Of a DNA stretch of 64,000 bases, positions 2,016 through 38,627 are shown one piece after another. Below the pieces are notes generated by a model. That model did not search any database. It saw nothing but the letters and a program-made list of their open reading frames with translations, and was not told where the DNA came from. The stretch comes from a bacterium (GTDB taxonomy: Bacteria > Bacillota > Clostridia > Oscillospirales > CAG-272). The DNA is taken from contig CAVGAA010000004.1 in NCBI GenBank assembly GCA_963627065.1, positions 1,147 through 65,146 of the forward strand, given 5' to 3'. The stretch's first letter is position 1; each line of letters starts with the position of its first letter. A program made the translations under genes and the position numbers.

Positions 2016-2043
2016 TTGACTTCTCATAAATTTATGTTATAAT
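2016..2043 (+). promoter_or_regulatory. Putative sigma-A promoter of the ten-gene operon
   Basis: TTGACT (2016-2021), a 16-nt spacer, and an extended -10 of TGtTATAAT (2035-2043). It lies about 100 nt upstream of the first ATG (2147). Confidence 0.55.
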
Positions 2044-2146
2044 ATAACTATATAGGCATTTTTGTTGCACCGATTCGGGTTAGTTTCATATTTGATCGGA
2101 TTTATATTTTCTTTTTTCTTCATTTTGAAAACCGCAGGGAGGATTC

Positions 2147-4072
2147 ATGGACGTTTTTCTTTCGATTGACATCGGTTCTTATTCCACCAAAACCGCCTAT
2201 GCTTACAAATTCGGAGATTCTTACCGCTACGGTATGTTAAATATTGACGGCGGAATCGATTTTTGGTCGATTGCCTGCTACAATCCGGACACCTGCAAAT
2301 GGACTTTCGGCAAAAACGATATGCTACGCTCGGCGAAAACATCCTTTCGGTATATCGTACACATCAAAGAGTTGCTCGAACTTTTTAAAGACGGCACAAT
2401 CTCGTTGTACCGTCGCAAAAAACTGTTCAAAAATTTCTATTTTCCGCCGAAAGAAACGAATTCTTCCTATGAGGAAACGGTGAAGAATGGCGACTATTTT
2501 CAGGCGAAACAGACACCTCGCAAAGTTGTGGAACTGTTTTTGGAACATTACTGCTCCGCTATCAAAAAAGAGGCACTTGCAAGGTTGAAATCGGACGGAA
2601 TTGACATCGATACCTTACCTGTTCGTCTTTTGCCAATTGTCCTTTATCCATGCAATTCTTCACTTGATTTTATTTGCGAGTTGCAGTCACTCGTTGCAAA
2701 TGCTTTCGGTTGCGATGCGGAAAAAGTCCGTGTCATTTCCTCGACCAAAGCCGTTGCCGTTTCGGCAAAAGAGTTCGGCGTGGTTGATACGTCCGTGGAA
2801 AAGGCTTTGATTTTCAACATCGGCGAGGCAAAAACCTCGGTTGTGAAAGTGGCTTTTCAGGAGAAGAATATTTCGGCTTACGGGGCAGACGGACATCTGC
2901 CCCCCGATTCCATAGGCGGAAAAGATTTCGATTATGCTCTTTACGATGCTTTAATGTCCCATTCACGGAATATTCCGTCATTCGGCTCTACCGATGCCTC
3001 GGATCAGGGTGAGCGGGGTTCTTATTATGAGCAGTTCCGCATGATGAGCAATATCGGCTACTGCAAACGTTTTTTCGGTTATGAACCGAACGGACAGAGC
3101 AACGGAGTCGAATTCAAAATCGAGCGGGAAATGTCTGTCCCCGTTTCGATAACATCGGGTGAATTCCAAGCGATTGCGACACCGGTTTATGAGAAGATTT
3201 GGGATTATGTCAAGAAGGAACTCAACAATCGGGTGGCAGGTAAGAAAGTCAATTCCGATGTCGATGCGGTTCTTTTTGCAGGCGGAGCGTCGGACACTTA
3301 CGGACTTGACAAGTTTGTGGAGGAGAAATTAAAGCAGTACAACAAGAATATTCGCTTTTTGGATTTCAGTCCTGCGACAGACGGCGGTCCGGATTTTGTG
3401 CTGTGTCCATCGACCGATACCGCTCCCGTCGGTGCGGTTCTCTTCGCGGTCGGAAAATATCCGTTTGAGATTATCACGACACGGTCTTACGGGACGTGGG
3501 GCAGTCTTGAAAAAAACGGCAACGATCCGTGTCTGTACTATGCCCCTATCATTCGATACGGCAAACGGATTCCGTTGCAGGGAAAACCTCTCGAATTTGA
3601 AAAGTCGGAGTCTTTCAAAATCAGCCGTTGCCGTTACGATTTCGAAAAGCAGATTTGCTACAACTACGATGAATATTATTCGTTGGCAATCGATGACTCG
3701 CAGAGTGAGGATGTCGAACACGGTCCTGCAATTGCCAGAAAAATCGGCGAAGAAGTGGACGACGATGCACTCATGCGGGAAAACAAATATTCTTCTTTTG
3801 AACGAAAAAACGCAATTTCCAACTATGAACTGAAAGTTCTGACGGAAGGCTTTCGAATGGTATTTGAAAATGTAAATCCGAAAATGCTCCGAGAACGAAA
3901 CGGATTTTACTTTTTTGACGGAAAATTAGATATCAGGCAGGGCTTGAAAATTGATTGCGAGGGGCGTGCGATTCCGTTTGCCGAAAGCAACGGCAAAGAC
4001 GGTCCGCTCGGCGATATCGAAATTACCTTCCGTGCGGACGAGGGCAAAGACAAGGAAATAAAGATCAATTGA
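2147..4072 (+). CDS. Operon gene A: divergent Hsp70/actin-fold (ASKHA) ATPase with a non-canonical C-terminal domain
   Basis: 641 aa. It has a phosphate-1-like LSIDIGSYSTKTAY, a phosphate-2-like FNIGEAKTSVVKV, an adenosine-motif-like AVLFAGGASDTYGLDKFVEEKL and an NBD-end-like APVGAVLFAVG, in the same order and spacing as DnaK-type NBDs. A GGGAGG RBS precedes the ATG. Confidence 0.6.
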   Translation: MDVFLSIDIGSYSTKTAYAYKFGDSYRYGMLNIDGGIDFWSIACYNPDTCKWTFGKNDMLRSAKTSFRYIVHIKELLELFKDGTISLYRRKKLFKNFYFPPKETNSSYEETVKNGDYFQAKQTPRKVVELFLEHYCSAIKKEALARLKSDGIDIDTLPVRLLPIVLYPCNSSLDFICELQSLVANAFGCDAEKVRVISSTKAVAVSAKEFGVVDTSVEKALIFNIGEAKTSVVKVAFQEKNISAYGADGHLPPDSIGGKDFDYALYDALMSHSRNIPSFGSTDASDQGERGSYYEQFRMMSNIGYCKRFFGYEPNGQSNGVEFKIEREMSVPVSITSGEFQAIATPVYEKIWDYVKKELNNRVAGKKVNSDVDAVLFAGGASDTYGLDKFVEEKLKQYNKNIRFLDFSPATDGGPDFVLCPSTDTAPVGAVLFAVGKYPFEIITTRSYGTWGSLEKNGNDPCLYYAPIIRYGKRIPLQGKPLEFEKSESFKISRCRYDFEKQICYNYDEYYSLAIDDSQSEDVEHGPAIARKIGEEVDDDALMRENKYSSFERKNAISNYELKVLTEGFRMVFENVNPKMLRERNGFYFFDGKLDIRQGLKIDCEGRAIPFAESNGKDGPLGDIEITFRADEGKDKEIKIN

Positions 4073-4107
4073 CGGTTAACGTTTGAAATTTCGGAAATGA
4101 GGCTATT

Positions 4108-6981
4108 ATGCGTAAAGATTATAAAATCCTGTCGGATTCCACAACCAAATTTTCAAAAACGAGCAGTTCGGCTACGCCCGTTGCCCTGACGCCCGAAATT
4201 TTCGATGATATGAACCGTGTGGAAGATTTGAGCCGTTATGACGATTTTTCCAAACTCGAAATCGATGCCGGCGAATATCGGGAAAACGGTATGGGCTTCG
4301 GTATTCCCTTTAATCCGACCATTCACACGGACGGTGCCGTTTTGCGTATGCACCAAACCGAGGCGGCAAAAATCTTTTTGAGTGACCTGCGTGGATTCGG
4401 TTTGCTTGCCGACTGTGTCGGTAGCGGAAAAACCTATGAAGCCGGCATTGTCATGTCCGAACTTGCCTACCGCGGAAAAGTCAAAAATCTGCTCATTATC
4501 GTTCCGGACGAAAATCTGCGTTTGAAGTGGATTGATGTAATCGGGGACAGATTCGGTATGGGGAAAAAGACTTTGTCGACAAAAATCGACGTGTCGAAAG
4601 GCTTGGAGCAGATCACCTCCTCGAACGGGGCTGTTTCCGTACGCCCGAACGGGGCATTTATTCTGCTTTACGACGAATTTGCAAGACTCGAACAGAGCCA
4701 GATTAAATCCTATCTGTTTGATTTGATTGTCGTCGACGAGGCACACAACCTCTGCTCCAAAGACGATATGCACAACCGTTCCATGCATTATCTGTCCTTG
4801 CTCATGCAAACCAAACGCAATTTCAATGTCCCCTACTGTCTGCTTTTAACAGCGACACCGCATTCGGGAAATCTCGAATCGATGTTTCCGCTTTGGTACT
4901 TTATTCGTTGCAAAGGCGGTACGCCTGCCTGCTTTTCCAAAAAGGAAATTCCCTCGCCCGAAGAAAAAGACGAATATGACAAGGAACGCTCTCACTATCT
5001 CAATATCGTGTGCAAAGGTGCGAAAACCGTTGCGGAATATATCGAAAACGCAAAACAACAGCACCTGATCGGTACAAAGAATCTGACAACCGACTACCGT
5101 GCGGATTACCTGTCGGAATTCACCTATGACGGCAGAAAGTACCCTGCACTGAAATACGAAGATTATACGGCACTGACACACTACGAGCAGAAAAGCCGTT
5201 GCAGTGCTTATCTCGCCGAACACAGAGATGTGGAAAGCCAAATTCTGCACAAGGTGAAAGACTCCTATTCGAGCGAGGTTATGCGGTCGATTATGGTCCG
5301 CCGTCGCAACGATTTTTCGCAGGCTCGCATGGCACACAGTTATTTCTTTCTGCCGATTGAAAATACGGTTGCAAAGCCGTCCGCTTCGAGAAAATCCGAA
5401 AATTTCACGTTTGACGGCATCAATCTGAATGCAGAAGGCTTTTCTAAACTTTTCAATCAATACGGCGACAAACTCTTTGAAAATGAGCGATTCGTCAAAA
5501 AAGGATCTTCCGATTTCTATTTCAATCGATTTCAAAAAGTAGCCGACAACCCCGAAAACGATTTTATTCACATAGAAGAAGTCCCCTCAACGCTTGAGAA
5601 GGAGGAAGATGCGATCTTTACAAAGAAATGCGAAGAATTCGTCAAAATCGTTCGTGACGAGGCGAAAAGGAGTGCAGATTCTTCCCGTATGATCGTATTT
5701 TTCGACTACGATCTCCCCTGCAATTCGTCAAACGATGACGATAAAACATCATGGTACAGACTCGCCGATTATCTGACGGCATCCGGAAACCGTGACATTG
5801 CAGAGCGGATTATTCACGGTGATGTCGACCACATCGAAAATGCGATTTCCGCTTACAACGCCCGTGAAGATGCCATTCTCTTTGCCGAAGGTGTGAAATA
5901 TTCCGAGGGGCAGGATTTGCAGGTCGGTAATGTCATTGTCAATTTTGAAGTTCCGATAGATCCCCTCACGGTCGACCAAAGAATCGGACGTGTGTACCGA
6001 ATCGGGCAGTCGCTCGATGTCAATATCTATTCTTTTGCGACGATGAACGCCCTTGACGGCTATTGCCTTGCGTACTTTGTCGATATCGGAATTCTTTCCG
6101 ACCGCAACGGCGATGCCTCAATTCTTTCGGGGTGCAACAGTGAAAATATGAAAGCCCTGAAATGTCCCCGTTGTAACGATATTTCACTGGTCAACGAAAC
6201 CGATTATATGAATTTTATGCCGAACTGTCCGAACTGCTCGAAAAGGATGTTTCCGACGGTCAAACGGCTGGACGGCGGAAAAGAAAAAGATGTATTCCTC
6301 TGCCCGAACTGCAAAGCGGAACAAGATATACCGAAAGAAAACGGTCTGCGGTGCATCAAACATTACAACGGCGAGGAGTGCGGTACGGTCAGACAACCGA
6401 TTCTCTTTTCGGAATTCGTATGCGAGGCGAACCCACGCCACAAAATCAAGCGTTTTCGTGGGGATGACGGCGAATCGTTTTATGCCTGCCTTTCCGTTCA
6501 CCAAAATAAAATGGAATACAAACCGCTCGACACCGGTTGCAGAATCGGTTGCCCGAAATTCTGTGCGTTGAAAAACTGCAAAAAAATCGATCCGAAATGC
6601 AAAATTCGTGTCAATAACATCACGGACGAAAATGAGGCAAAAATCATTTGTGCATCCTGCCCCGAAAAGCAAAACTGCCTGTGTAATGTCAACAAGCCCG
6701 TGTCGGAATCCTGCTCGGCAGGAAAATGTCATCGGGATTACCCGACCTGCAATCCGAAACCCTATACCATTCGGTTCGATGCTAATTACGAAAACGGTGT
6801 TTGCCCAATCTGCAAAGAAACACGGAAAAAAACAAACTTTTTGCTCCCTGTCAAGAAGAACACTTTTGAAACCTATATCAAAGAACGTTACGACACCGAC
6901 ACGGATTTTTGTCGGAATTTCGATGCGGATGCCGTAAAAACGCTGGAAATCAAGGACATTTTGATGTTCGATGACAACTGA
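4108..6981 (+). CDS. Operon gene B: SNF2-family helicase/translocase with a ~280-aa cysteine-rich (multi zinc-ribbon-like) C-terminal tail
   Basis: 957 aa. Motif I is VGSGKTYEAG (GSGKT at 4420-4434) and motif Ia is LLIIVPDENLRLKW. Motif II is VVDEAHNL (DEAH at 4735-4746) and motif III is LLLTATPHSGNLESMFPLWYF. Motifs V-VI read EVPIDPLTVDQRIGRVYRIGQ. The tail holds about 25 Cys, including CPRC, CPNC (twice), CASC and CPIC. Confidence 0.8.
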   Translation: MRKDYKILSDSTTKFSKTSSSATPVALTPEIFDDMNRVEDLSRYDDFSKLEIDAGEYRENGMGFGIPFNPTIHTDGAVLRMHQTEAAKIFLSDLRGFGLLADCVGSGKTYEAGIVMSELAYRGKVKNLLIIVPDENLRLKWIDVIGDRFGMGKKTLSTKIDVSKGLEQITSSNGAVSVRPNGAFILLYDEFARLEQSQIKSYLFDLIVVDEAHNLCSKDDMHNRSMHYLSLLMQTKRNFNVPYCLLLTATPHSGNLESMFPLWYFIRCKGGTPACFSKKEIPSPEEKDEYDKERSHYLNIVCKGAKTVAEYIENAKQQHLIGTKNLTTDYRADYLSEFTYDGRKYPALKYEDYTALTHYEQKSRCSAYLAEHRDVESQILHKVKDSYSSEVMRSIMVRRRNDFSQARMAHSYFFLPIENTVAKPSASRKSENFTFDGINLNAEGFSKLFNQYGDKLFENERFVKKGSSDFYFNRFQKVADNPENDFIHIEEVPSTLEKEEDAIFTKKCEEFVKIVRDEAKRSADSSRMIVFFDYDLPCNSSNDDDKTSWYRLADYLTASGNRDIAERIIHGDVDHIENAISAYNAREDAILFAEGVKYSEGQDLQVGNVIVNFEVPIDPLTVDQRIGRVYRIGQSLDVNIYSFATMNALDGYCLAYFVDIGILSDRNGDASILSGCNSENMKALKCPRCNDISLVNETDYMNFMPNCPNCSKRMFPTVKRLDGGKEKDVFLCPNCKAEQDIPKENGLRCIKHYNGEECGTVRQPILFSEFVCEANPRHKIKRFRGDDGESFYACLSVHQNKMEYKPLDTGCRIGCPKFCALKNCKKIDPKCKIRVNNITDENEAKIICASCPEKQNCLCNVNKPVSESCSAGKCHRDYPTCNPKPYTIRFDANYENGVCPICKETRKKTNFLLPVKKNTFETYIKERYDTDTDFCRNFDADAVKTLEIKDILMFDDN

Positions 6982-7003
6982 CCGATACACAGTGAGGTAG
7001 TAT

Positions 7004-8635
7004 ATGGCGATTGAATATATCATCCATGAAGAAGAGGACATCAAACTGTTCAAAAAACTGGTCGAATTGCGTGACAGTGGGTATGTCCGAGTCGAAAATT
7101 CCGAAAACGGTCCTGCCATCGTTCACGAACTCGGCGGAAAAGAATATCATTTTATTCAAAGTAATCATTCCGATTGCATGACGGAACTGTCGGAAAACCG
7201 TGAAAATGATGAAAACGGTTTCTACTGGTTTCGTGACATTCGGGGCGAAACGATTTCGGATGCGACGAAAGGAAAAATTGCTTGGAACGATCTCATCCTG
7301 AATGTTTCGGAAAAATTCTTCGGTAAATATCCCTGCCTCGTCTATGCGGACGAAAGGCAGTTGACGGGAAAAGACGATGCGGTTGAAATTCGCCGTACTC
7401 AACTTTCAAATCTTGTGGAAAACTTCTTCGATTTGGACGATGTAAAATACGAAATTGTCCATAAGGCAGACGAATCCCGTGCCTATTACGGTGCAAGTTT
7501 GAAACTCAATGTCAAAATTTCGGGTGAACCGAAGCCGATTGTCGGAAAAATTTTCTTTGTCGTCAGCGGTCAGAGAATCGTGCCTTTGGATGAGTCGGTC
7601 GGTCGGCAACTCTCCGATATGGTTTGGACCGGAATGAAGAAAAAACTGAATCAGGCAAAAGGCGATGCCCTGCGGGAAGATTCGAACGATATTACAACGC
7701 TTTACAGCCAATTGGAAAACTTTTTTAAGCAAGGTGTCGACCTCTCGCAGTATCTCATTCTTTCCGATGAGAACCAAGCAGTCATAACCGAATTACTGCG
7801 GAACAAAGAGCGTGGTAACGACAAAATTACCGTTACCTGCGAACAGATTTATATCAACTCGATTCTGAAAGTCTTTGTGAAAGTGCCGGTATTCGATATT
7901 GTTTTACATGCCGACCGTGGCGACAAAATTCTGTCGGCAAACTATTACGGTGATATGTTGACGCTCATCTGCCATGCGTGCAGTCGGCATGAGGTCATTG
8001 TCAATGACGGATATGTTTCCTACACCGATGAGGACGGCATTTCGCACAGTTATTTTCTCTCTTTCGATGCCGAAAATGAACCGTACCTCTCCCGTGACGG
8101 TCTGCCTCTTTCGGAGGACTCCGATGCGGAAGATTACAAAGCCGTTGGGGAAAATGTTTTCAGACGGCACATTCGAAAAATCGAGTGCCACAATTTGGGC
8201 ATCCACGGCGACTGTTACAATTATGTATGTCTTGACGATACGGTAACGATTGAAGGAAAGCCCGTGCGGTGTAAGGACTGCCCCTATCTCGAAAAAACCA
8301 TTGTTCTGAACGGTTGCAATTATTCGCCGAGCGAATTGTTTTTCGACACCGACAGCGGTACGATTCGGGAAAAGTCGCAGGAGAATGTCAAATGCAAGAC
8401 CGAAAAGTGCCAAAACTCGGCTACGGGCGGAAAGTACTGCAAACTTTGCGAATCTCTTCGCAGTACAGCACCGAGCGATATAGAAAAGCAACGGGCGGAT
8501 TACAAAAAATATGCTCGCATCCTTCCGCTTTTCCGGCGAATCGGATCGGGCGATAAGCGTTGTGTGGAAGATTACAAACAATTTGTATTTCGTCTGGGCA
8601 ATAAGACCTTTGTCATTGAAAAAGAAACACTTTGA
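7004..8635 (+). CDS. Operon gene C: hypothetical protein with a cysteine-rich C-terminal half
   Basis: 543 aa with no family recognised. CxxC-type pairs are present (CHAC, CKDC, CKLC), along with ECHNLGIHGDCYNYVC. There is an RBS-like GTGAGG. The gene starts 22 nt after gene B. Confidence 0.6.
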   Translation: MAIEYIIHEEEDIKLFKKLVELRDSGYVRVENSENGPAIVHELGGKEYHFIQSNHSDCMTELSENRENDENGFYWFRDIRGETISDATKGKIAWNDLILNVSEKFFGKYPCLVYADERQLTGKDDAVEIRRTQLSNLVENFFDLDDVKYEIVHKADESRAYYGASLKLNVKISGEPKPIVGKIFFVVSGQRIVPLDESVGRQLSDMVWTGMKKKLNQAKGDALREDSNDITTLYSQLENFFKQGVDLSQYLILSDENQAVITELLRNKERGNDKITVTCEQIYINSILKVFVKVPVFDIVLHADRGDKILSANYYGDMLTLICHACSRHEVIVNDGYVSYTDEDGISHSYFLSFDAENEPYLSRDGLPLSEDSDAEDYKAVGENVFRRHIRKIECHNLGIHGDCYNYVCLDDTVTIEGKPVRCKDCPYLEKTIVLNGCNYSPSELFFDTDSGTIREKSQENVKCKTEKCQNSATGGKYCKLCESLRSTAPSDIEKQRADYKKYARILPLFRRIGSGDKRCVEDYKQFVFRLGNKTFVIEKETL

Positions 8636-8660
8636 CACGCATCGGAGATAAACGATAGAT

Positions 8661-12920: not shown

Positions 12921-12940
12921 TCCGAAAGGAGGACAAAGCA

Positions 12941-13966
12941 ATGACCGGAGAAAATTTCATAGAATGTCCGAACTGCCATAAAGAAATGCGTCCTTTGACC
13001 TACTTTACCGGAGAACTGTACTGTTCGAAATGCCATGCGGAGTTGATCGATGCGATTCAGATCAAGGATAATGCCAAATGCGAAGATTTTGCCCTCTCGC
13101 AACGCTGTTTTGCGGATTATCTGTTGAACATCGTCCCCAAAATGGACAAAGGCACGATAAAGCATACAAAAGAAAGTCACAGGAAAGAGGCTACGAGAGC
13201 CGTTCGGCGTGCATACGAATACTGTCGAAGTTCCGCTTATGCCGGAAACCCCTACGCAATTTTGAATATGGGGTACTACTTATCACACGGTTACGGCATA
13301 TTGATTGAAAACGATGTGCATACCGCAAAACTCTTTTACGAAAAAGCATTGCAGTCCTCCGATGATGAGGTTCGGAGCATTGCAAAAACGGCTCTCGAAG
13401 ATTTGAACGGCTTGCAAAAAATGCAATCCGGCAATTCGGAATTTGACCGATTGATAAAAATATTCGACTCGGCGGAAAATGCATCTCTCTCACGCACGCC
13501 TCTCTTAGGGATAGTATCGGTCACCTATTCGCAATTGCAGGAAAACGAGCGTGCAAAACTGCTTGAAAGGCTCAACAAAATTCTGCGAAAATGGGGAAAA
13601 GAAACGCTCTTTTTCTGGAATGCCGAACGGAAACGGTTTGAAATCTGCACGGATGAAATTACGGACGACCTGTTCGACGAAACCGGAAAGAATTATTTGG
13701 CTTTCCGCAACCTGAAATGCAAGCCGTCCAAAGAAGCCGTCCGTGCGGTGCAAAAGAACGTCACGGACCTTTCCGGTGAGAAAATCTGCGAAAATTTCTT
13801 TGACATTCTGATGCAGGCAAACCTCTCGCAGGAACTTGACAGAACAATTACGCTCTGCGATTGCGACTTTGTCATCACCAAAGACGAAAAAGGAACGGAA
13901 CGCGGAAAACTGGACGATCTGTCGGATGCAATTATCGACTTTTGGAAAGAAAAAGCGAATGCATGA
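12941..13966 (+). CDS. Operon gene E: N-terminal zinc-ribbon plus Sel1-like repeat protein
   Basis: 341 aa, counted from the ATG at 12941. An AAAGGAGG RBS lies 8 nt upstream, and the start falls 20 nt after the gene D stop. The track ORF begins at an upstream TTG inside gene D. The zinc-ribbon signature is CPNC...CSKC. The Sel1-like signature is AYEYCRSSAYAGNPYAILNMGYYLSHGYGILIENDVHTAKLFYEKAL. Confidence 0.6.
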   Translation: MTGENFIECPNCHKEMRPLTYFTGELYCSKCHAELIDAIQIKDNAKCEDFALSQRCFADYLLNIVPKMDKGTIKHTKESHRKEATRAVRRAYEYCRSSAYAGNPYAILNMGYYLSHGYGILIENDVHTAKLFYEKALQSSDDEVRSIAKTALEDLNGLQKMQSGNSEFDRLIKIFDSAENASLSRTPLLGIVSVTYSQLQENERAKLLERLNKILRKWGKETLFFWNAERKRFEICTDEITDDLFDETGKNYLAFRNLKCKPSKEAVRAVQKNVTDLSGEKICENFFDILMQANLSQELDRTITLCDCDFVITKDEKGTERGKLDDLSDAIIDFWKEKANA

Positions 13967-13991
13967 TAAATGCATAGCATAAGAGGAAATT

Positions 13992-15449: not shown

Positions 15450-15460
15450 GGAGTATCGGG

Positions 15461-17458
15461 ATGTCCATTATCGAAACCGTCAACCGTGCAAAAAGTGCCT
15501 ATTACACCTCCTTGCGGTCGGACGATTTGCGTTCGGCATATGAAGATTTGGATGGGTTGACAGACAGCAACTTAACCGAAAAAAACCTATCTGCAAAACG
15601 CCTTTACTCTGCCCTGCTCAAAGTCAAACTTGCGACTGTCGATTTCATGCGTGGAAAGCCGACCTCCGAAGCCCTGCAAAAGGCTCTTGCACTCCTCTCG
15701 GATGCAAAAAACGGTTTGGATGCCCACGCATTCGACTCCGCATGGGTAGATCGATTGACGGACGGGGTGCGATTTGTTGCCGAATTTTTCGCCGATGTGA
15801 ATTTGTCCCTGCAAATGGTACTCACGGGAAGCGGATTTCAAGGGACAATTCGGGAATTCACCAATCTTTCGCAACTGCTTGACGAAAAAAAGCAAAATGT
15901 AAACTTTGCGGAATGGGCAGAACTGTTTCCGTCCTACGAATCGACCGAATTCGGTTCGTTTCGTTATTTTTCGGTCAATGAACAGATCAGGCGAAAGTTG
16001 GAGGGCTACCGCTCCGACCTCTCGGATGCCTTTCGCCGTTCCGTCACGGTTGACGATTCAGTCTTCGTCAAGCCGATACCGGAATATAACGATTTTCAAT
16101 ACGTTTCCCCTCTCGATTTGGGACGAAGCACGATCCGCTCGCAGATTGCTTTTATCGAAACACCGCTCACGTCGGAGTTTGATCTGCTCCTCAATGCCAA
16201 CGAAAAATGTGAGAACGGAAAAGCACGCAACATCGTCCGTATCGATACGCAACGTTATTCCTTGCATACGTTCTGTGAAAAAAGCGGTGATTACAGAATC
16301 GAACTCGGATCTGCATTCCAAAATCAGTTTGCATCCTTTTTGACGGCGATTGCTTTGGATACCGAAATCGATATTTTGGCATTGTACCGTCTGAACGATC
16401 TCTCCCCTTTTGAAAAAATGAGCATTTTGATGGCTTGTGCGGACTTTTGCGGTTTTCACTTTGCTACGCAAATTGTTATCATGGACACGAGCGGAGAACG
16501 TGAACTGCCGAGTCTATACAACAAATTGAAGGTTGAAAAGCCAACCCTGCCGTCTGCGGACGGAATGTATCTTTCTTTTCCCTCGTATTCGGACGTTTGC
16601 GATGCTCTGGACGAGCAGAAAATTAAAAATCGCATTGATTTGGACGAATTGCGTAAAAAAGGGGCGTTTTTGGGCTTTGTCGGATTCAACCGTCTTTTGA
16701 AAAATCTTGCCGACGACAAACCGCTGTGGCAAGAAGAATACATTCGCACATCCGAATCAAACCAAAGAATTTCAACTCAATTTTTGAACGGTTTGCAAGA
16801 ACTTTCCCGCTTGATTCCGCCGGATTGGAAAACCAAAATCGTAAAGCGAGCCGTTTCGGATAACATCGGTTACGATTACGACGTCATTCGTGACGTTCTG
16901 GACGATAAAATCGAGGCAATTCTCTCTGACGAAACGCTGAATATTTACGATCTTTGCGGGAAACTTGTCATTTATTGCCTGCAAGCCGATGAAGATATTT
17001 CGGTGTGGGACAAGAATCTTTCGGAAGAAGAACGTGAAAACCGCATTCGTCTGGCGGTCCGTATCTGTGCTTTCGCCATGCGTGTGCAATATCAGAATCC
17101 TGCGGTGGAATTCGATTCCTCCCACGGGGGTGACTGGGGCGGTCAATGCTGTAACTGTGGGCAGTTGATCAAATTCAAAACCGATTGCATCGACAAACCG
17201 GAATGGACACGGGATGCAATTCTGCATGAACTTTACCATGCTTTGCAATTCACCGTCATCAATTCCAATTTACCGCTCGGTTGGTATAAAAAAACCTATC
17301 ACCTTTCCAATGAGCGAATTTCCTCTTGGCGTGATAATTTCGATTCGTACGCCGACATAGATGCAAAAGGAAACCGCAAAAACTACCGCATTCAAACCGT
17401 TGAAGTCGATGCTCGGGACTTTGCCTGCTTTTGCCTCGGCGACACGACAAGCCCGTAA
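15461..17458 (+). CDS. Operon gene G: helical protein with a C-terminal HExxH (zincin-like) motif
   Basis: 665 aa. The motif DAILHELYHALQ has HELYH at 17225-17239. It is preceded by CCNC and followed about 55 aa later by TVEVDARDFA. That E..A..FA pattern is reminiscent of ImmA/IrrE-type metallopeptidases. There is a GAGGAG RBS. Confidence 0.5.
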   Translation: MSIIETVNRAKSAYYTSLRSDDLRSAYEDLDGLTDSNLTEKNLSAKRLYSALLKVKLATVDFMRGKPTSEALQKALALLSDAKNGLDAHAFDSAWVDRLTDGVRFVAEFFADVNLSLQMVLTGSGFQGTIREFTNLSQLLDEKKQNVNFAEWAELFPSYESTEFGSFRYFSVNEQIRRKLEGYRSDLSDAFRRSVTVDDSVFVKPIPEYNDFQYVSPLDLGRSTIRSQIAFIETPLTSEFDLLLNANEKCENGKARNIVRIDTQRYSLHTFCEKSGDYRIELGSAFQNQFASFLTAIALDTEIDILALYRLNDLSPFEKMSILMACADFCGFHFATQIVIMDTSGERELPSLYNKLKVEKPTLPSADGMYLSFPSYSDVCDALDEQKIKNRIDLDELRKKGAFLGFVGFNRLLKNLADDKPLWQEEYIRTSESNQRISTQFLNGLQELSRLIPPDWKTKIVKRAVSDNIGYDYDVIRDVLDDKIEAILSDETLNIYDLCGKLVIYCLQADEDISVWDKNLSEEERENRIRLAVRICAFAMRVQYQNPAVEFDSSHGGDWGGQCCNCGQLIKFKTDCIDKPEWTRDAILHELYHALQFTVINSNLPLGWYKKTYHLSNERISSWRDNFDSYADIDAKGNRKNYRIQTVEVDARDFACFCLGDTTSP

Positions 17459-17481
17459 AATATGAACACTCGGAGGACTTT

Positions 17482-20400
17482 ATGCCGGATTACTTGGAAA
17501 AACTGCATTCTTTTGAGAAAAAACTCCTGCATTTGGAAGATCTGTCCAACAGACAAATCGATTTGAAATTGGATGACTATCGCATACCGACTTGTGACGA
17601 TGTTTATACGCTGTATGATAACCTTGCAGATTTCGGCAAGCGGTTTTACAGTTCCGTACGGAACAAAATCGGAAAAGGCGATGCCGTTTCGGTTCTGCTC
17701 GGCGACAGTTCCGTAACAACCTCCGAAAGCGGTATCCGGAGATCCGAATGTTTTTCGGTCGAATGGAGCGGATGCGTACCGAAAGACGATTCACGCACAC
17801 CTCAGAAAAAACTGAATTCCTACATTGAATCGATTTATAAAGATGTCCGTGAAAAAGGCATCAATCCGTTGTTTCTCTCAATCGGTGCTATCAAATGGAA
17901 AATCGCACGCCCGTCCGCATTCGGAAACGATGCGGAACAGGTTATCACGTCACCGCTCATAATCTTTCCGATAAAACTGATCCGCTCAACCAATTTCTTA
18001 CCGGTCGGCATTGAATTTGTCGATGACGATATTTATGTCAACGAGTGTTTTTGTGAACTGTTTAACGGCATTTACGAGGGGCATTTGCCACCGTTTCCCC
18101 TGCCGGTCGGCAATGACGACGATCGCAGTATCGATGTCGAAACATTCGATTTCGATGCCTATTGGGATACGATTGACCGCTATGTAAAAGAACATATCGA
18201 CCTGCGAAAAATCGACTCCACCGTGTTCGAATTTCTGCCGGATCTCGTTGCGATTTCCGAATATACGCACGAGGACATTTGTATGTTCCGTGATATTCGC
18301 AGGAATCAGGCGATCGTCGAAAATCATCCGCTCATCAAACGGGTGTTCGGCGGTGAGGTTGTCGACATCGGAAAAATGACCAAGGCACCGCTCAAATTTG
18401 CACTGCAATATGACGAGGTGCAGAAAGAAATCATTCAAAAAGTCATCGGCGACGGCGAATGCGTAAAGGTGCAAGGGCCACCCGGGACGGGTAAAACCCA
18501 GACCATTGCGAATATCATTGCCTGCTGTATGGCAACCGGCAAAAAAGTGCTTTTCGTATCACGCAAAAAGCCCGCCATTGACGAGGTTTACCGCAAACTG
18601 CCGGAAAATCTGCAACCGTTCGCTCTGCGATTGGGGCAGGATTCCGAACATTCCGTTGCCGGTATGAAACCTGCCGACTTGCAAGCGGAATTCCGCAAAA
18701 CTTTGGAATTTTCACTCTCAGAGTTGAATGCGACGGCGGTCGGGCAGAAAGACGGCGTTCTCACAAGCAAAGAAAACGCTCTGTCCGACAAACTCGAAAT
18801 CTATCACCGTTTGATGTTCGAAGACCTTTTCGAAAACGGTTACAATTTTTACGATGCACTGGTCGAATATTTACGGTTTGACTGCCAATTCGTCAAACTG
18901 AATGCCGAACCGGTCACCTATCTGCTCACGGCAAAAAAAGCGGTCTTCACATCTGCGTACGCCGATGTTGCAAAACTCGCAAAGTGGTATGCCGTTTTCA
19001 CCGACAATTGCCGTCACAGTCCGCTTTTGTCCCCACATTTCGGCATTTATCCGTCCTGCACAACCGACAATTTCCTGCCGGATGCAACGATTACGGATCT
19101 GAAAACCGCAGTCGAAAAGATCAAAGTGCAGTTGTCCGATTTTCCGGAAATGCGGGCGGTTGTTCTGCATGATCTGCATTCGGTCGCAAGCCTTGACGAT
19201 GAGGATTTTGTCAATCGGTTTGCGGATTCCGACTATATTTTGGATGCCACAACTTTGCTTTGCGAAATTACCGAACTGCACGGGAAACTGTCGGCGGAAG
19301 GACTTTTCGACAAATATCGCACCCTTTTGGAGAACGGTTCTCTCAAAGATCGCTCGGCATTTGAATTGCCGAATATTGACGAAACTTTCTACACCTATAC
19401 GGTAGCGGAACTTGAAAAGTTCATTGCATTTTTCGAAGATAAAACCGTCAACCGTATTCGAATTGAAAAAAAGAATATCACCGAAAGCGTCAATGCTTGG
19501 TTCAAGGCAAAGCGGACACTCTCGGACAATCGGCATACCGTTGCCGAAATTTTCGGAGAAAATGCACTGTCGGGCGACCGTTGCAAAAAGTTGAAAAATC
19601 ATTGCTCCGCCGTTTCGAAATATGTCGACAAAACCGATGCGGAACTTTCGAAAAATCCCCTTTCCAAACTGGCACTCCGAATGCTTTCCAAACTGCGTGA
19701 GAACGATACTCCGATCAAACCGACACGCTTGGTTGCCGGTGCAGTTGCCTATACGGCTTGCGTGAATGCCGTAGAATCCATGCAATTGCAATCGTTAAAC
19801 CTTTCGCAAATTGTTGAAAAGCAATTGACGGACGAAGACATTGAGCGAATCGCCACCATGCTTCTGATCGAAAGTGAACAGAAAATTATTGAGCATTTGC
19901 TCCGTGACCTGAACGGGTTCTGTCAAGTCGTCAAGGCGGCGTTTGCAGGCGAGCAGTCCCCGTCACTCTCGGCAATTTCAACCTGCGGAACGGCGGAGGA
20001 CATTCGGCACTTTGCAAGTATTCTGCCCCTTTACAAGTCCTATTCCGTCTTGATTGCAAGGCTCAATACCGTTACGGAAACCGATCTTTTGTATGCGGAC
20101 AAAGTCGTAAAACCGAAAGATTTGGCTCTGCTGTCGAACCGTTTCAACGCAATCAGAATAGCAAAACAATCGAAAAATCCCCGTGCTTTCATCGGTGCTA
20201 TGCAAAGCGTGTTCAAGGAATTGCGTTTTGTCATCGACAGGATTACGGATTATGCCGACACGGCGACAACGAATTTTGTCGATCGGGTTTCGGTTTATCA
20301 CGATGCACGGCAGTTCGGCACGGCGGAAGCGGAAATTTTTATCTGCGAGGTCAACAACGGTAAGGCTCGGTCTGCCATGTCCGATTTTCAAAAATTGCTT

Positions 20401-22119
20401 TTGCGGAACAACGATAACATTGTATTGCATTTCTTCCGCCCGTTCCTTGTCGGTGGCCGCTCGAAAGATGCACCGTTCGAAAATATCTTTGTAAAATGTT
20501 TCTACGGCAATTACATTGAAAGCGTTAAAAATCTGCCGACCGTCAAGGCGAAAAATTCGCAGGCATTCGCAAAATTGCCGATTGAAATTCAACAACTTGC
20601 AACCTTTGCGGAGCAGTACGCAAACGGCAGACTGCAAACCTTGCAAACCGAATTTGCAACGGTGGAAAAATCACTCCTTGCTTGCAATATCGACTTTATC
20701 GCCCTTTCGGAGATTGCCCGTGTGGCGAAACTCAAAAAAGATTATCCGCACGCCTTTGATATTTTCAACGATAACAAATCAATCTATCGCAATGCACGCT
20801 TGATTTTCAAGCATCAGGCAAGGGAAATTATGATGCTGAAAAGTTGTTACCTGATGTCCCCTGCCGCCGTCAGCGTTCTGCTCGGGAACGAAGCTTTCCG
20901 TGAATTCGATATTGCCATTTTCGACGAGGCAAGCCAAATCGAACCGCAACATTTGATACCGGTTCTTTTCAGGGCAAAACAGTGTGTGATCATCGGTGAC
21001 GAATTCCAAATGCCACCCATTAAGCATTTTGTCCGTCGATCGGCGGATGACGAGAGTGACGAGTATGCGAAAATCGAATCGGCACTCGACTTGATTTCAA
21101 ACGGCAGAGGAAAATTCTCGCCCGTGCGATTGCGTTGCCACTACCGGAGCAATTGCGAATCCCTGATTGCTTATTCGCAAAAATATTACCCCGATATGGT
21201 GACGTTTCCCTCAAAGACAAATTTCAACAGCCGTATGGGTATTCGGGACATTCTCGTAAATACGCCACTCGGCGGAGGTGCAAACGGCAGTAACCTGACC
21301 GAGGCAAAGGCGGTGATTTCCGCTCTCGAACGACATTTTGAAGTCAATTCGGATCTGTCTGTCGGCGTCATGACCTTCGGTGAACGGCAGGTCGACCTGA
21401 TTGTCAAACTGATACGGGAAAGCCCCGTTTTGAGAACCAAATATTTTGACGAAAAAGCCTTCTTTGTCGAGGCAATCGGAAAACTGCAGGGCAGAGAGGT
21501 CGACCACGTCATTATGAGTATGACCTATGCGAAAAACACCTCCGGTTTGCTCTACGGTCTTGGCGATCTCAGCCGTGATTACGGTGAGCAGGTGTTCAAT
21601 GTTGCGTCATCCCGTGCAAAAAATATGTTGACGGTCATTCACTCTTTTACCGCCGACGAAATTGCAACATCGAATACGACCGCATCGGGTTATCTTTCGG
21701 AATTCCTGCGGACCGTTGCGGAACACGCCGGCGAAGAACACACCGTTCTCGGCAGTACGAAAGACAAATTTGATAATCCGTTTGTGCAGAACATAGTCAG
21801 GTATCTCACAGAGGACTGTCAGGTTCCGTCTGAACGGATTCTCGTTGATTACGGTGCAACCGAAAAATCTTTGCGGATTCCGATTGTCATCACGGATAAG
21901 GACAGAACGCAAGCCGAAATTGCAATCTTCTGCGAAGTTCCGCCGATCGTAGGCGGGCAGGCGGTCGATTACATCGACTTTTCGACAAGGTATCACAATT
22001 CCCTTGTCAATCTCAGAGGTTGGGACAAGTCGATATGCATTTTTGCGTACGATTGGATTTATAACCCCACCGAAAAACAAACACTGCAAAAATTTATTAC
22101 GGAAAATAGAGGAGAATAA
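17482..22119 (+). CDS. Operon gene H: DUF4011-type N-terminus plus Upf1/DNA2-like SF1 helicase (AAA_11/AAA_12) plus a degenerate Vsr/DUF559-like C-terminal domain
   Basis: 1545 aa from the ATG at 17482, which has a GGAGG RBS. The track ORF starts upstream and overlaps gene G. The N-terminus carries GINPLFLSIGAIKW. Walker A is VQGPPGTGKTQ (18475-18498) and motif II is IFDEASQ...VIIGDEFQMPP. Further motifs are CHYRSNCESL, GKLQGREVDHVIMS and VASSRAKNMLTV. The tail reads IAIFCEV...RYHNSLVNLRGWDKSICIFAYDW. Confidence 0.8.
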   Translation: MPDYLEKLHSFEKKLLHLEDLSNRQIDLKLDDYRIPTCDDVYTLYDNLADFGKRFYSSVRNKIGKGDAVSVLLGDSSVTTSESGIRRSECFSVEWSGCVPKDDSRTPQKKLNSYIESIYKDVREKGINPLFLSIGAIKWKIARPSAFGNDAEQVITSPLIIFPIKLIRSTNFLPVGIEFVDDDIYVNECFCELFNGIYEGHLPPFPLPVGNDDDRSIDVETFDFDAYWDTIDRYVKEHIDLRKIDSTVFEFLPDLVAISEYTHEDICMFRDIRRNQAIVENHPLIKRVFGGEVVDIGKMTKAPLKFALQYDEVQKEIIQKVIGDGECVKVQGPPGTGKTQTIANIIACCMATGKKVLFVSRKKPAIDEVYRKLPENLQPFALRLGQDSEHSVAGMKPADLQAEFRKTLEFSLSELNATAVGQKDGVLTSKENALSDKLEIYHRLMFEDLFENGYNFYDALVEYLRFDCQFVKLNAEPVTYLLTAKKAVFTSAYADVAKLAKWYAVFTDNCRHSPLLSPHFGIYPSCTTDNFLPDATITDLKTAVEKIKVQLSDFPEMRAVVLHDLHSVASLDDEDFVNRFADSDYILDATTLLCEITELHGKLSAEGLFDKYRTLLENGSLKDRSAFELPNIDETFYTYTVAELEKFIAFFEDKTVNRIRIEKKNITESVNAWFKAKRTLSDNRHTVAEIFGENALSGDRCKKLKNHCSAVSKYVDKTDAELSKNPLSKLALRMLSKLRENDTPIKPTRLVAGAVAYTACVNAVESMQLQSLNLSQIVEKQLTDEDIERIATMLLIESEQKIIEHLLRDLNGFCQVVKAAFAGEQSPSLSAISTCGTAEDIRHFASILPLYKSYSVLIARLNTVTETDLLYADKVVKPKDLALLSNRFNAIRIAKQSKNPRAFIGAMQSVFKELRFVIDRITDYADTATTNFVDRVSVYHDARQFGTAEAEIFICEVNNGKARSAMSDFQKLLLRNNDNIVLHFFRPFLVGGRSKDAPFENIFVKCFYGNYIESVKNLPTVKAKNSQAFAKLPIEIQQLATFAEQYANGRLQTLQTEFATVEKSLLACNIDFIALSEIARVAKLKKDYPHAFDIFNDNKSIYRNARLIFKHQAREIMMLKSCYLMSPAAVSVLLGNEAFREFDIAIFDEASQIEPQHLIPVLFRAKQCVIIGDEFQMPPIKHFVRRSADDESDEYAKIESALDLISNGRGKFSPVRLRCHYRSNCESLIAYSQKYYPDMVTFPSKTNFNSRMGIRDILVNTPLGGGANGSNLTEAKAVISALERHFEVNSDLSVGVMTFGERQVDLIVKLIRESPVLRTKYFDEKAFFVEAIGKLQGREVDHVIMSMTYAKNTSGLLYGLGDLSRDYGEQVFNVASSRAKNMLTVIHSFTADEIATSNTTASGYLSEFLRTVAEHAGEEHTVLGSTKDKFDNPFVQNIVRYLTEDCQVPSERILVDYGATEKSLRIPIVITDKDRTQAEIAIFCEVPPIVGGQAVDYIDFSTRYHNSLVNLRGWDKSICIFAYDWIYNPTEKQTLQKFITENRGE

Positions 22120-22125
22120 AAAATC

Positions 22126-22788
22126 ATGCCGGAAATGCAATGTCAAGTAATTAGAGATCCGAAACTGTACGAGGTCTACAACAAAAAAGAAAAAAGTCTT
22201 GAAGAATATCTGGAATACGGCGAGAAATACGGCGAAGAAGATACCCGTACGCAGTTAAAACTTTCTCTGTTCGTGATTCGTTCCACGCTCTGCACCTTCA
22301 AGGAAACGCTTGCGTCTTACCGAGAGGTTTTGCAGGAATTCGCGGATATTTCGCAGGAATTGGAAGGCTTTTTCGATCTGGATTTCGGAGAAGTGACGAA
22401 TTCGTTCTATGACGGTTTGGAAAAATATCCCCGCTTTATGCGGAATTGGTTGGCACGCAGACGTGCGAAAAGATATTATCGGAACAAATTCGACAAACTC
22501 CGTTTTCAACTCGAATCGGTCGGTATCGGTGTCGCTCAGGTCGGTTCGCTTCTCGGAATTGTGCAGGGATCCATGAACAGTATGATTTCGGCAATGGTCC
22601 CCAAAAAGAGCAAAAAGAATCAGGGATTGATGATCGATCCGAAAATTCAGGCGGAAATCGACAATGCAAGGCAAAACAGACGGCAAGGCGGAAACGGCGG
22701 TCAACCGACCAATCAAACGCAACCTTCCCAGACCGCATCGGGTTCGACGGGGGCATCGTCCGGTAAATTCAGTCCGGAAGATTTTTAA
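22126..22788 (+). CDS. Operon gene I: small helical protein with a glycine-zipper-like hydrophobic segment and a disordered Q/G/N/S-rich tail
   Basis: 220 aa. The segment SVGIGVAQVGSLLGIVQGSMNSMISAMV (about 22516-22599) follows a basic stretch, RRRAKRYYRNKFDKLR. The tail reads RRQGGNGGQPTNQTQPSQTASGSTGASSG. The gene starts 6 nt after gene H. Confidence 0.55.
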   Translation: MPEMQCQVIRDPKLYEVYNKKEKSLEEYLEYGEKYGEEDTRTQLKLSLFVIRSTLCTFKETLASYREVLQEFADISQELEGFFDLDFGEVTNSFYDGLEKYPRFMRNWLARRRAKRYYRNKFDKLRFQLESVGIGVAQVGSLLGIVQGSMNSMISAMVPKKSKKNQGLMIDPKIQAEIDNARQNRRQGGNGGQPTNQTQPSQTASGSTGASSGKFSPEDF

Positions 22789-22806
22789 TCAAGAAGGGAT
22801 ACCGCT

Positions 22807-24015
22807 ATGTCAGATACCATGAAAAAGCGTGGAAATGCGACGGATGCGACGCCCCCGAAAGCTCCGGACGATATCGTTTCTCTTTTGGAAGATTGCAAAA
22901 CCAAAATCGCAAAAATCAAGATTTTGGAAGACGAATTGGAAAAGAATCCGAATGCATCGGACATAGAATTGAAACGCAGTAACCTTTCCGCTCTCAACCT
23001 CGAAGCGGCAGGCTTACTCCAAAAAATCATTACCATGGCAACCGGCAATCCGAAATGCCACTCCGAACTTATCAAGGCATTCAATGACGAAAACGCCCTT
23101 GAAGTTGTAAAAGAACGGCTCAAACGCCGTTTTGCACAGGCACAAAAATACGGTTCCCGTGTCAAAACCGAAATACCGAAAACCTCGCTTGACGATATTG
23201 CAGGTCAGGAAGACGTCAAAAAGACCGTTCGCAGTTTCGTTTTCCTCTGCCAAAATGCCGAACTGTTTGAGAAATACAAACTCAAAGGCGGACTCGGCAT
23301 GATGATGTACGGAGCCCCCGGGACGGGAAAAACCATGTTCGCCGAGGCGATTGCACACGAAATGAAAATGCCCCTTTTCGTCATCACGCCTGCCGATATT
23401 TTCAAGTCCTATGTCGGTGCATCCGAGCAAGCCGTGCGACAGATTTTCCAAGATATTGCAAGTTTTCCCGAAGGTGCAATTCTGTTTGTGGACGAGTGCG
23501 AATCGATCTTTTCCAAGCGTTCGAATGACACAAAAGATTATAAAGCGGCGGTTACAAGCGAACTGTTGCAACGCATGAACGGTGAGGGTGTTGACGGTAG
23601 CCGTCGGATTATGATTGCCGCAACGAACAGACCTTGGGACATCGATCCCGCCTACCTGCGTTACAAGCGATTCTCACACCTCGTGCATATCACACCACCG
23701 GACGATTCCGCAATCGAGGTCATTGTGCGGAACAAACTCAAAGGCATTCCTTTGTCAGACGGCGTTTGCGAATATGCAATACAAGTCATTTGCAGTCAAC
23801 GAGGCGGACGTTATTCCGCGGCGGATGTGTGCGGAATTATTGAGGAGGCTTGCCGAATTGCGGTGGAGAATTGTATGCAGAATTATGCCGATTCGCATAC
23901 TTTAGCCCCCGTGACGAAAGATATGATCGACTCTGCCGTCGGCAGACGAAAGCCGAGCATCAAAGCCGAAGATTTGGAACTGTACAACAATTTTTCGCCG
24001 GACTCGATGTTTTAA
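22807..24015 (+). CDS. Operon gene J: classic-clade AAA+ ATPase (Vps4/katanin/FtsH-like module) with a helical N-terminal domain
   Basis: 402 aa. It contains LDDIAGQEDVKK, Walker A GAPGTGKT (23311-23334), Walker B AILFVDECESIF, a sensor-1-like IAATNRPWDIDPAYLRYKRF and an SRH-like region. Confidence 0.8.
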   Translation: MSDTMKKRGNATDATPPKAPDDIVSLLEDCKTKIAKIKILEDELEKNPNASDIELKRSNLSALNLEAAGLLQKIITMATGNPKCHSELIKAFNDENALEVVKERLKRRFAQAQKYGSRVKTEIPKTSLDDIAGQEDVKKTVRSFVFLCQNAELFEKYKLKGGLGMMMYGAPGTGKTMFAEAIAHEMKMPLFVITPADIFKSYVGASEQAVRQIFQDIASFPEGAILFVDECESIFSKRSNDTKDYKAAVTSELLQRMNGEGVDGSRRIMIAATNRPWDIDPAYLRYKRFSHLVHITPPDDSAIEVIVRNKLKGIPLSDGVCEYAIQVICSQRGGRYSAADVCGIIEEACRIAVENCMQNYADSHTLAPVTKDMIDSAVGRRKPSIKAEDLELYNNFSPDSMF

Positions 24016-24040
24016 TATCGCTTATAAGGCAACAGAAGAA

Positions 24041-24075
24041 CCCCGACCGCAAACTGTGGTCGGGGCATTTTGATT
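24041..24075. terminator. Rho-independent terminator shared by the ten-gene operon and the convergent downstream gene
   Basis: CCCCGACC (24041-24048), a 9-nt loop, GGTCGGGG (24058-24065), then CATTTTGATT. It begins 26 nt after the gene J stop. Confidence 0.7.
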
Positions 24076-38617: not shown

Positions 38618-38627
38618 ACAATCGCCT

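Follow-up and report, generated by a model that had tools for sequence, protein, structure and literature searches.

A ten-gene, four-motor cassette of gut and rumen Clostridia as a candidate undescribed conflict system

What is the role of an operon that sets a Hsp70-like protein, an SNF2-family ATPase, a superfamily 1 (SF1) helicase and a Cdc48-like AAA+ ATPase side by side with six other proteins? The question is raised by a 64,000-nucleotide stretch of DNA, here called the window, from a bacterium of the Clostridia (Oscillospirales, CAG-272; GenBank assembly GCA_963627065.1, contig CAVGAA010000004.1, positions 1,147 to 65,146 of the forward strand). Its genes A to J form a cassette that is read here as a candidate for one co-transcribed, co-inherited and undescribed conflict system, nuclease-free and directed against phages or plasmids. 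This reading is drawn from sequence and is given a probability of about 0.5. The cassette is laid out as follows, in window coordinates.

2016-2043, + strand: sigma-70-type promoter, TTGACT-16 nt-TATAAT with an extended -10 TG, matching 11 of 12 consensus positions
2147-4072, + strand: gene A, 641 amino acids (aa), predicted Hsp70-like ATPase
4108-6981, + strand: gene B, 957 aa, SNF2-family ATPase with a Cys-rich C-terminal domain
7004-8635, + strand: gene C, 543 aa, fold unassigned, zinc-ribbon-like CxxC cluster at the C-terminus
8661-12920, + strand: gene D, 1419 aa, five-helix membrane anchor and repeats
12941-13966, + strand: gene E, 341 aa, N-terminal zinc ribbon and one Sel1-like repeat
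13992-15449, + strand: gene F, 485 aa, mainly helical/coiled-coil
15461-17458, + strand: gene G, 665 aa, C-terminal zincin-type metallopeptidase motif
17482-22119, + strand: gene H, 1545 aa, DUF4011/Upf1-like SF1 helicase
22126-22788, + strand: gene I, 220 aa, small helical protein with a basic motif
22807-24015, + strand: gene J, 402 aa, classic-clade AAA+ ATPase
24041-24065 (element to 24075), + strand: intrinsic terminator, 11-bp stem with 8 G-C pairs, then CATTTTGATT

The ten co-directional open reading frames (ORFs) are separated, in order, by 35, 22, 25, 20, 25, 11, 23, 6 and 18 nt; an initial annotation of the locus had every coordinate and gap exact. It had also given each gene its own GGAGG-like ribosome-binding site, and most genes do have a GGAGG/GAGG-type site, although those of D and J are weaker. 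The near-consensus promoter and the strong hairpin terminator that it described both stand. The arms of the hairpin are CCCCGACC and GGTCGGGG, and it is the strongest terminator-like site of the region; within the operon, terminator-like hairpins occur at chance level and none comes near the terminal one in strength. Promoter-like sites inside the operon number 16 in one half, against 14.5 in shuffles (chance level), and 23 in the other half, against 13.5 (standard deviation, SD, 4.2; about 2 SD above), all of them weak with at most 10 of 12 matches. Gaps of 6-35 nt between a single strong promoter and a single strong terminator make one transcription unit plausible, as had been proposed.

Upstream of A, an AT-rich non-coding region had been described. 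The spacer at 1459-2146 (688 bp) does have a GC content of 36.8%, against 46.8% for the window, but it also holds a divergent perfect-consensus promoter of an M29 peptidase gene and a 118-aa minus-strand ORF (1468-1824), both of which had gone unmentioned. This ORF has no family match, overlaps promoter-like sites and a 20-bp tandem repeat, and is probably not a gene, so that the whole spacer would be non-coding. A run of 15 A residues at 1989-2003, directly 5' of the -35 box of the operon promoter, is UP element-like. The minus-strand promoter (TTGACA-17-TATAAT, 1673-1645) would drive the M29 peptidase gene, and the tandem repeat (1568-1629, 3.1 copies, consensus GACATCGAAATGCCGTTGCA) lies on its transcribed side between the divergent genes, in what is presumably the 5' leader of that gene, and may serve as an operator array or as a leader element.

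The ten genes are co-inherited as one block. Their order is identical in about 20 independent loci, among which cassette identities fall to about 20-30%, and the complete A-J block lies on one JGI contig. Every locus recovered with A that holds enough sequence carries A-B-C-D(-E) in the same order, and every locus recovered with H, including those with tier-2 helicases about 30% identical, carries C/D-E-F-G-H-I-J (B-J in one). The initial annotation had reckoned with chance juxtaposition should synteny fail outside this genome; the same order in some 20 loci excludes it. The named sources are uncultured Clostridia/Christensenellaceae metagenome-assembled genomes (MAGs) recovered from the rumen of goat and buffalo and from the gut of rabbit and mouse. 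For A, a full hidden Markov model search of 1.84 billion representatives gives a family of 272 clusters at 50% identity, 132 of them at E<=1e-30. A distant version of the cassette, in L030, has an extra co-directional gene 23 nt after J (16468-17652, 394 aa) with a Pfam Ribosomal_L27A match, which is absent from the window.

The first motor, A, matches no Pfam model (HSP70 included) and none in NCBIfam, PADLOC or PHROGs. Its AlphaFold2 model, built from ten homologues, has a predicted local distance difference test score (pLDDT) of 77 and a predicted template modelling score of 0.81. Foldseek places full-length DnaK, BiP and Hsp110 at the top of its PDB matches (best E 7.6e-24, to DnaK, over about 660 columns), and all 23 PDB matches of the sequence profile are Hsp70 chains. 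On these two grounds A is a Hsp70-like protein with both a nucleotide-binding domain (NBD) and a substrate-binding domain (SBD). Its motifs are phosphate-1 DIGSYSTK (2168-2191), phosphate-2 LIFNIGEA (2807-2830), IGGKDFD (2912-2932) and an adenosine motif (3275-3307). The HPD motif of J-domains is found in none of the proteins A-J, so a classical Hsp70/J-protein pair is not evident.

B carries the SNF2 motifs GSGKT (4420-4434), DEAH (4735-4746), TATPH (4849-4863) and QRIGRVYRIGQ (5977-6009) and matches ResIII, SNF2-rel_dom and Helicase_C in Pfam. Its C-terminal Cys-rich multi-zinc domain spans about 280 aa; 19 Cys of this domain, together with the SNF2 motifs, are invariant in ten orthologues. 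C is always the next gene after B in the recovered loci. It has no family match in Pfam, NCBIfam, PADLOC or PHROGs; ten of its Cys are invariant in five orthologues, and its only PDB profile matches, all sub-threshold, are to the eL43 zinc ribbon.

The second translocase, H, matches DUF4011, AAA_11 and AAA_12 in Pfam. Its SF1 core is intact, with GPPGTGKT, DEASQ and NVASSRAK all present, and about 810 aa separate Walker A (18475-18498) from Walker B (DEASQ, 20923-20937). At about 21769-22116 the protein ends in a restriction endonuclease (REase) domain of MTES_1575/Vsr-like type, for which the Pfam search gave no PF18741 match. Relative to canonical DUF4011 helicases, the Asp of the catalytic strand has become Pro (LRIPIVI, 21871-21891) in every cassette-type H orthologue aligned, and IECDG reads IFCEVPP (21925-21945) in H and its 11 closest orthologues. 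By these residues the nuclease domain is predicted to be catalytically dead throughout the family, and this loss fits a non-nucleolytic output. The earlier remark that no intact nuclease is visible holds, with the correction that H does carry a nuclease-type domain in catalytically degenerate form.

J is the best-conserved protein of the cassette (45-63% identity). It has a helical N-terminal region of about 120 aa, and its Walker A (23311-23334) and Walker B (23482-23505) motifs are invariant in five orthologues. It matches Pfam AAA (PF00004) at 1e-32, and CDC48 and CdvC in NCBIfam at 1.7e-39 and 8e-36, while its profile finds p97/Cdc48/VAT in the PDB, nearest the D2 domain, at about 4e-70. 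J is classed by these matches as a classic-clade AAA+ ATPase of the Cdc48/p97 D2 type. The initial annotation's view of four unrelated NTPase engines is borne out, by the Foldseek match to DnaK for A and by Pfam and PDB profiles for the other three.

The gene before J encodes I, which has no family match (Pfam, NCBIfam, PADLOC) and no PDB match. A basic motif, YPRFMR..RRRAKRYYR (22426-22482), is conserved in its alignments, and the protein also has a Lys-rich linker and a low-complexity tail with an acidic/aromatic end. The glycine zipper once ascribed to it is not conserved in orthologues; a zipper or pore was rejected as a family feature, with no conserved transmembrane segment and a maximum hydropathy of 0.45-1.44. 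An ESCRT-III/Vps4 reading of the I and J pair was also discarded: matches to Vps4_C are weak, I is unmatched, and J is closest to p97 D2.

G shows the HExxH noted earlier within two motifs, HExxHxxQ (HELYH, 17225-17239) and ExDARxF (EVDARDF, 17402-17422), which are invariant in six orthologues that are elsewhere 21-36% identical. These orthologues were taken by position from the loci recovered with H; a word-based search with G gave the identical copy only. Two sub-threshold matches bear on its fold, one to Pfam SprT-like (E 0.0028, in one of five orthologues) and one to the PDB profile of Wss1p (5xbn; E 1.2), in which the strand before HExxH is sensibly aligned. A single-sequence AlphaFold2 model of the C-terminal domain was unusable (pLDDT 38.5). 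PDB profile searches with C, G (full length and C-terminal) and I returned nothing significant.

D carries a membrane anchor. Five hydrophobic helices at aa 41-181 are conserved in seven orthologues, and Pfam finds MBG_3 in the window protein and MBG_2 in orthologues; motif reading adds leucine-rich (LRR) and Listeria-Bacteroides-type repeats. That the large region lies outside the cell is suggested by three features: the helices are odd in number, the N-terminus is basic and the repeats are of types found in surface proteins. D ranges from 975 to 2273 aa between loci. In the window, a 438-bp tandem repeat at 11830-12799 (2.2 copies, 80% identity) encodes paired MBG-type repeats, and repeat number evidently varies between orthologues. 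The next protein, E, had been annotated as a Zn-ribbon/Sel1 protein. The zinc ribbon (CPNC 12965-12976, CSKC 13022-13033) is upheld by four Cys invariant in six orthologues, but the Sel1 repeat is sub-threshold only, found at the same position in four of the six (best E 0.0068). F has no significant family match, and its positional orthologues are 14-18% identical.

Where does the cassette sit? Its surroundings differ from lineage to lineage, as these neighbours show.

Window: M29 peptidase upstream; DUF6440, FakA, DegV and lipid genes downstream
Loci L001, L003 and L007: dnaG-rpoD...SSF upstream; ThiD-like kinase and phosphomutase downstream
Loci L017 and L018: GH3 glycosidases
Locus L008: melibiase
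Locus L011: isochorismatase and SprT-like
Locus L030: HxlR and MerR

Two rumen MAGs, L001 and L003, hold the cassette at the same chromosomal site and allow its divergence to be set against that of its flanks. The flanking HD-domain protein, DnaG, RpoD, TrmK, NIF3 and SSF are 84-97% identical between them and a small zinc-ribbon protein 75%, whereas the cassette proteins A, B, C and D are 53, 58, 52 and 50% identical. Identity at the nucleotide level sinks from 80-89% to 40-70% immediately 5' of A. Two processes would be expected to leave such a pattern, the swapping of divergent alleles at one site and a strong acceleration of evolution, and each is characteristic of conflict or surface-antigen loci. 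Amid the divergence elsewhere, strong constraint holds the catalytic motifs of B, H, J and G; canonical motifs are kept in B, H and J, and those of A are partly non-canonical.

Several indirect lines of evidence favour the conflict reading. They begin with the confirmed operon anatomy and strict colinearity, to which the comparison of L001 with L003 adds a cassette that diverges, or is exchanged, much faster than its flanks, and the neighbours listed above add chromosomal contexts that change with lineage. H (through Hhe, ProA and PDC-S37), B (through DrmD and BrxH) and J (through IetA) are distantly related to validated or candidate defence proteins. The constraint on the motifs of B, H, J and G is a further ground, as is the family-wide loss of the REase catalytic Asp in H. 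G resembles Wss1/SprT proteins at sub-threshold level and J resembles Cdc48, and Wss1/SPRTN works with Cdc48/p97. Finally, CoCoNuT defence operons join similar types of protein (PMC11090510).

Other observations count against it. Defence genes, integrases and transposases are lacking beside the cassette in the neighbourhoods examined, which are metabolic or housekeeping in character, and none of them is a defence island; the sole transposase-type gene seen is of rve type, about 5.5 kb downstream of J in L004. The GC content of the cassette is that of the genome background. The cassette is stable within species, L017, L018 and L019 being 94-100% identical, and one H protein is identical across 20 contigs. 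Six of the ten proteins have no family match at all, and surface proteins of large size are uncommon among known defence systems, so that D might indicate other biology. Of the enzymes, G is a putative WLM/SprT-like zincin metallopeptidase, on its motif and sub-threshold matches, and A may be a poor ATPase judging by its non-canonical residues: Thr occupies the position of the DnaK catalytic Glu171 (in a DnaK alignment extended by eye), and the phosphate-2 Asp, present in the wider A family, is Asn in the subfamily of the window.

If the cassette is a conflict system, how might it work? Anchored by its five helices and exposing repeats that evolve fast, D would position or trigger the system at the envelope, the point of entry for foreign DNA. 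B, with its zinc-cluster tail and its partner C, and H would find and track invading nucleic acid or nucleoprotein, H retaining a nuclease-shaped but inactive DNA-binding domain. The output would be an action on protein and not the cutting of DNA. A, and J with its partner I, would extract or unfold target proteins, I serving as an adaptor or substrate-like partner whose tail resembles an AAA+ docking or substrate tail, and G would cleave the proteins that A and J handle. E and F could be adaptors or scaffolds. The target might be invader proteins on nucleic acid or, in abortive infection, a host protein; conjugative relaxases, terminal proteins and replication or packaging proteins are possible substrates of G, J and A. 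In its most specific form, this would be a nuclease-free immunity in which D, as a hypervariable surface receptor anchored in the envelope, places or triggers B and H on incoming DNA, and A, J with I, and G then extract and proteolyse DNA-bound proteins on which the invader depends. The cassette would then be a prokaryotic counterpart of Cdc48-Wss1 nucleoprotein disassembly turned to defence. This specific form, built by analogy, is a speculative refinement and much less probable than the conflict reading itself.

Could the same machinery serve the cell's own chromosome? B, H, J, A and G might clear DNA-protein crosslinks or stalled nucleoprotein as housekeeping genome maintenance, an explanation that draws on the sub-threshold WLM/SprT similarity of G, the Cdc48-like J, the lack of an active nuclease, the housekeeping neighbours (dnaG-rpoD in one lineage) and the stability of the cassette within species. 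It is nevertheless improbable. The A family is rare, with its 272 clusters among 1.84 billion representatives, and all its recovered members come from Clostridia MAGs of gut and rumen; the cassette is far more divergent than its housekeeping flanks, which is unexpected for the repair of conserved substrates; and the variable surface protein D is left unexplained.

D takes the central place in an explanation that deserves similarly little credence. Here the operon would serve a large adhesin or receptor by assembling it, checking its quality, varying it or signalling from it, for instance in cell-cell contact, plant-fibre attachment or kin recognition, with the ATPases acting in the export, turnover or regulation of D. 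D is the most length-variable gene, has repeats of surface type and a conserved five-helix anchor, and other giant surface proteins occur nearby in these genomes; chaperone, unfoldase and protease all handle protein, and surface-antigen loci also show allele replacement at fixed sites. Yet two translocases with conserved motifs, B and H, and the zinc-ribbon proteins have no obvious role in adhesin biogenesis, the cytoplasmic A, B and C are as divergent as D, and genes for secretion, sortases or glycosylation are missing from the cassette. A machine for conjugation or secretion was considered separately and rejected, for no VirB4, VirD4, FtsK, relaxase or sortase is found among A-J in Pfam, PADLOC and NCBIfam.

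Still less probable is that the ten genes form a selfish cassette of the addiction type, or that they are the cargo or a maintenance module of an integrated mobile element that has gone unrecognised. The varying chromosomal contexts, the sharp fall of identity at the upstream border and the AT-rich spacer speak for it, but no integrase, transposase, relaxase, replication gene or tRNA lies beside the cassette, in the window or at the other loci. Relatives of A were found neither in IMG/VR viral contigs nor among PLSDB plasmids or GenBank phages, and the GC content is that of the host. Chance juxtaposition of small systems (a Hhe-like helicase, an Iet-like ATPase, an SNF2 helicase) with unrelated genes, for which one could cite the resemblance of H, J and B to parts of different defence systems, is effectively refuted by the identical A-J order in every recovered locus, and the 6-35 nt gaps between one strong promoter and one strong terminator and the want in H of the nuclease that makes Hhe self-sufficient make it more improbable still.

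Elsewhere the window encodes functions in lipid and pectin metabolism, together with a copper ATPase and an AraC regulator; neither a tRNA gene nor an Rfam match was found in it. Searches for exact copies of A, P0001 and the neighbouring M29 peptidase came back empty and so revealed no strain without the cassette. Facing the operon end is a convergent gene (24090-24764, - strand) for a DUF6440 protein with a hydrophobic C-terminal half, in which a 15-bp repeat (2.5 copies, 24464-24500) encodes the peptide GSAEI/GSAEF. Further downstream lie several plant-polysaccharide genes in a row, as would suit an organism that degrades fibre in the gut or rumen; they are listed here with the genes beside them.

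37532-47258, - strand: glucuronyl esterase, two GH28 pectinases and a CE2/GDSL esterase
47574-48458: AraC regulator
48640-51171: copper P-type ATPase, in a locally GC-rich stretch

In the two rumen MAGs, giant YDG-domain surface proteins are encoded about 9 kb upstream of the cassette (L001 1-1049, 6322 aa; L003 1-1037, 4844 aa). Their C-terminal parts of about 1 kb share about 46-59% nucleotide identity, far below that of the intervening housekeeping genes.

If the cassette does prove to be a defence system, its composition of Hsp70-like protein, SNF2 ATPase, nuclease-dead Hhe-type helicase, Cdc48-like ATPase, zincin and surface protein would be one that is absent from named systems. With no recognisable nuclease or toxin, it would point to protein-directed or envelope-coupled immunity, would give a function to six protein families that now match nothing, and would extend the Hsp70-like/Cdc48-like theme in prokaryotic immunity beyond CoCoNuT. 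In the Christensenellaceae-type bacteria of gut and rumen that are its source, the biology of phages and plasmids has hardly been explored. Should the cassette have no part in defence, a strictly conserved ten-gene, four-motor machine is still a defined target for structural and genetic work.

How does the cassette compare with known systems? No PADLOC, NCBIfam or Pfam model assigns it to a named system, the matches being to single proteins and far below cut-offs, and PHROGs gives only generic helicase and AAA matches. No description of it was found in the literature searched, whether under PDC-S37 or ProA or as a combination of Hsp70, SNF2, UPF1-like and AAA+ proteins. That no known system claims the locus, as first proposed, therefore holds. 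So does the absence of a methyltransferase, PglZ, DUF1998, PLD or MotAB-like protein, none of which appears in the Pfam, PADLOC and NCBIfam searches. More broadly, the models matched by A-J include no hallmark partner of BREX, DISARM, Druantia, Zorya, Dpd, Mokosh or IetAS.

The SNF2 core of B recalls DISARM DrmD, BREX BrxHI/HII and Dpd DpdE (E 1e-25 to 1e-29). The matches to SNF2-helicase models (PADLOC BrxH and DrmD; NCBIfam DrmD, DpdE and RapA) cover the helicase core only and reach 89-103 bits against cut-offs of 500-950; for DrmD the score is 103 bits against 610. None of the three systems is otherwise represented: DISARM DrmA, DrmB (DUF1998) and DrmC (PLD) have no match among the ten proteins, BREX PglZ, PglX and BrxC are lacking beside the BrxHI/HII-type core match of B (4.3e-29), and no DpdA-K partner gene is in the cassette. 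The Cys-rich C-terminal domain of B is unique with respect to DrmD, BrxH and DpdE. Zorya offers a functional analogy only, as a membrane component combined with a cytoplasmic SNF2-family ATPase that acts on the DNA of invaders (B against ZorD is weak, 1.6e-06). The cassette has no MotAB-like ZorA/ZorB, no ZorC and no nuclease fused to its SNF2 protein, and D is a five-helix anchor with predicted extracellular repeats, unlike a stator-like channel.

IetAS reportedly consists of an AAA+ ATPase plus a protease. J matches IetA (PADLOC 1.5e-30, NCBIfam 4.5e-27) and the cassette has a putative protease in G, but J scores 95 bits against a cut-off of 510, H and I lie between G and J, and G is zincin-type and not an IetS-type serine protease, with no subtilase-type protein in the cassette. 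H leads to a second single-protein comparison. Hhe is said to be a single-gene DUF4011 helicase-nuclease, and H has in common with it the N-terminal DUF4011, the SF1 AAA_11/AAA_12 core, the long insertion between Walker A and Walker B, and the C-terminal MTES_1575/Vsr-type REase fold. Against NCBIfam Hhe (NF042953) H reaches 232 bits (E 1e-68), short of the cut-off of 2000 bits, and against PADLOC Hhe 2.3e-51, with the best stretch in the C-terminal helicase half. The anti-phage protein ProA (NCBIfam NF058533) gives 344 bits (1.6e-102; cut-off 1500; best stretch at residues 1105-1444), and the PADLOC candidate PDC-S37 gives 359.6 bits (1e-107) in two stretches, the better at profile positions 850-1252 of 1550, for a model that carries no stated cut-off. 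H differs from Hhe in that its nuclease residues are lost across the whole cassette-type clade and in that it never stands alone, being always gene 8 of the ten-gene block.

In eukaryotes, Wss1/SPRTN proteases work with Cdc48/p97 in the repair of DNA-protein crosslinks. The cassette resembles this pairing by functional analogy only, in having a HExxH zincin motif after a conserved strand together with a Cdc48-type unfoldase. The third ligand of G is likely gluzincin-like (ExDAR), in contrast to Wss1/SPRTN, and SHP, VIM and ubiquitin-type elements were not identified.

In theme, the cassette comes closest to the Type III CoCoNuT systems and to their Type III-A extensions. In Type III CoCoNuT, CnuD is a Hsp70-like NBD/SBD protein with degenerate ATPase motifs, CnuH is a UPF1-like SF1 helicase with a large helical insertion after Walker A, and the systems and their extensions include coiled-coil and zinc-ribbon proteins and a Cdc48/SpoVK-like AAA+ ATPase beside a small protein (PMC11090510; Bell et al., eLife 2024). 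A, set beside CnuD by description, has the Hsp70 fold, and the Walker A-Walker B distance of about 810 aa in H recalls CnuH. Of the remaining CoCoNuT components, CnuB (McrB-like GTPase) and CnuC (McrC/DUF2357) have no match in A-J beyond a weak AAA_5 in J, and the HEPN/CnuE effector, the TerY-P triad and a vWA protein are not among the ten. The cassette in turn adds an SNF2 ATPase, a putative zincin and a membrane-anchored surface protein. It thus stands outside every named system tested, while its parts are known folds.

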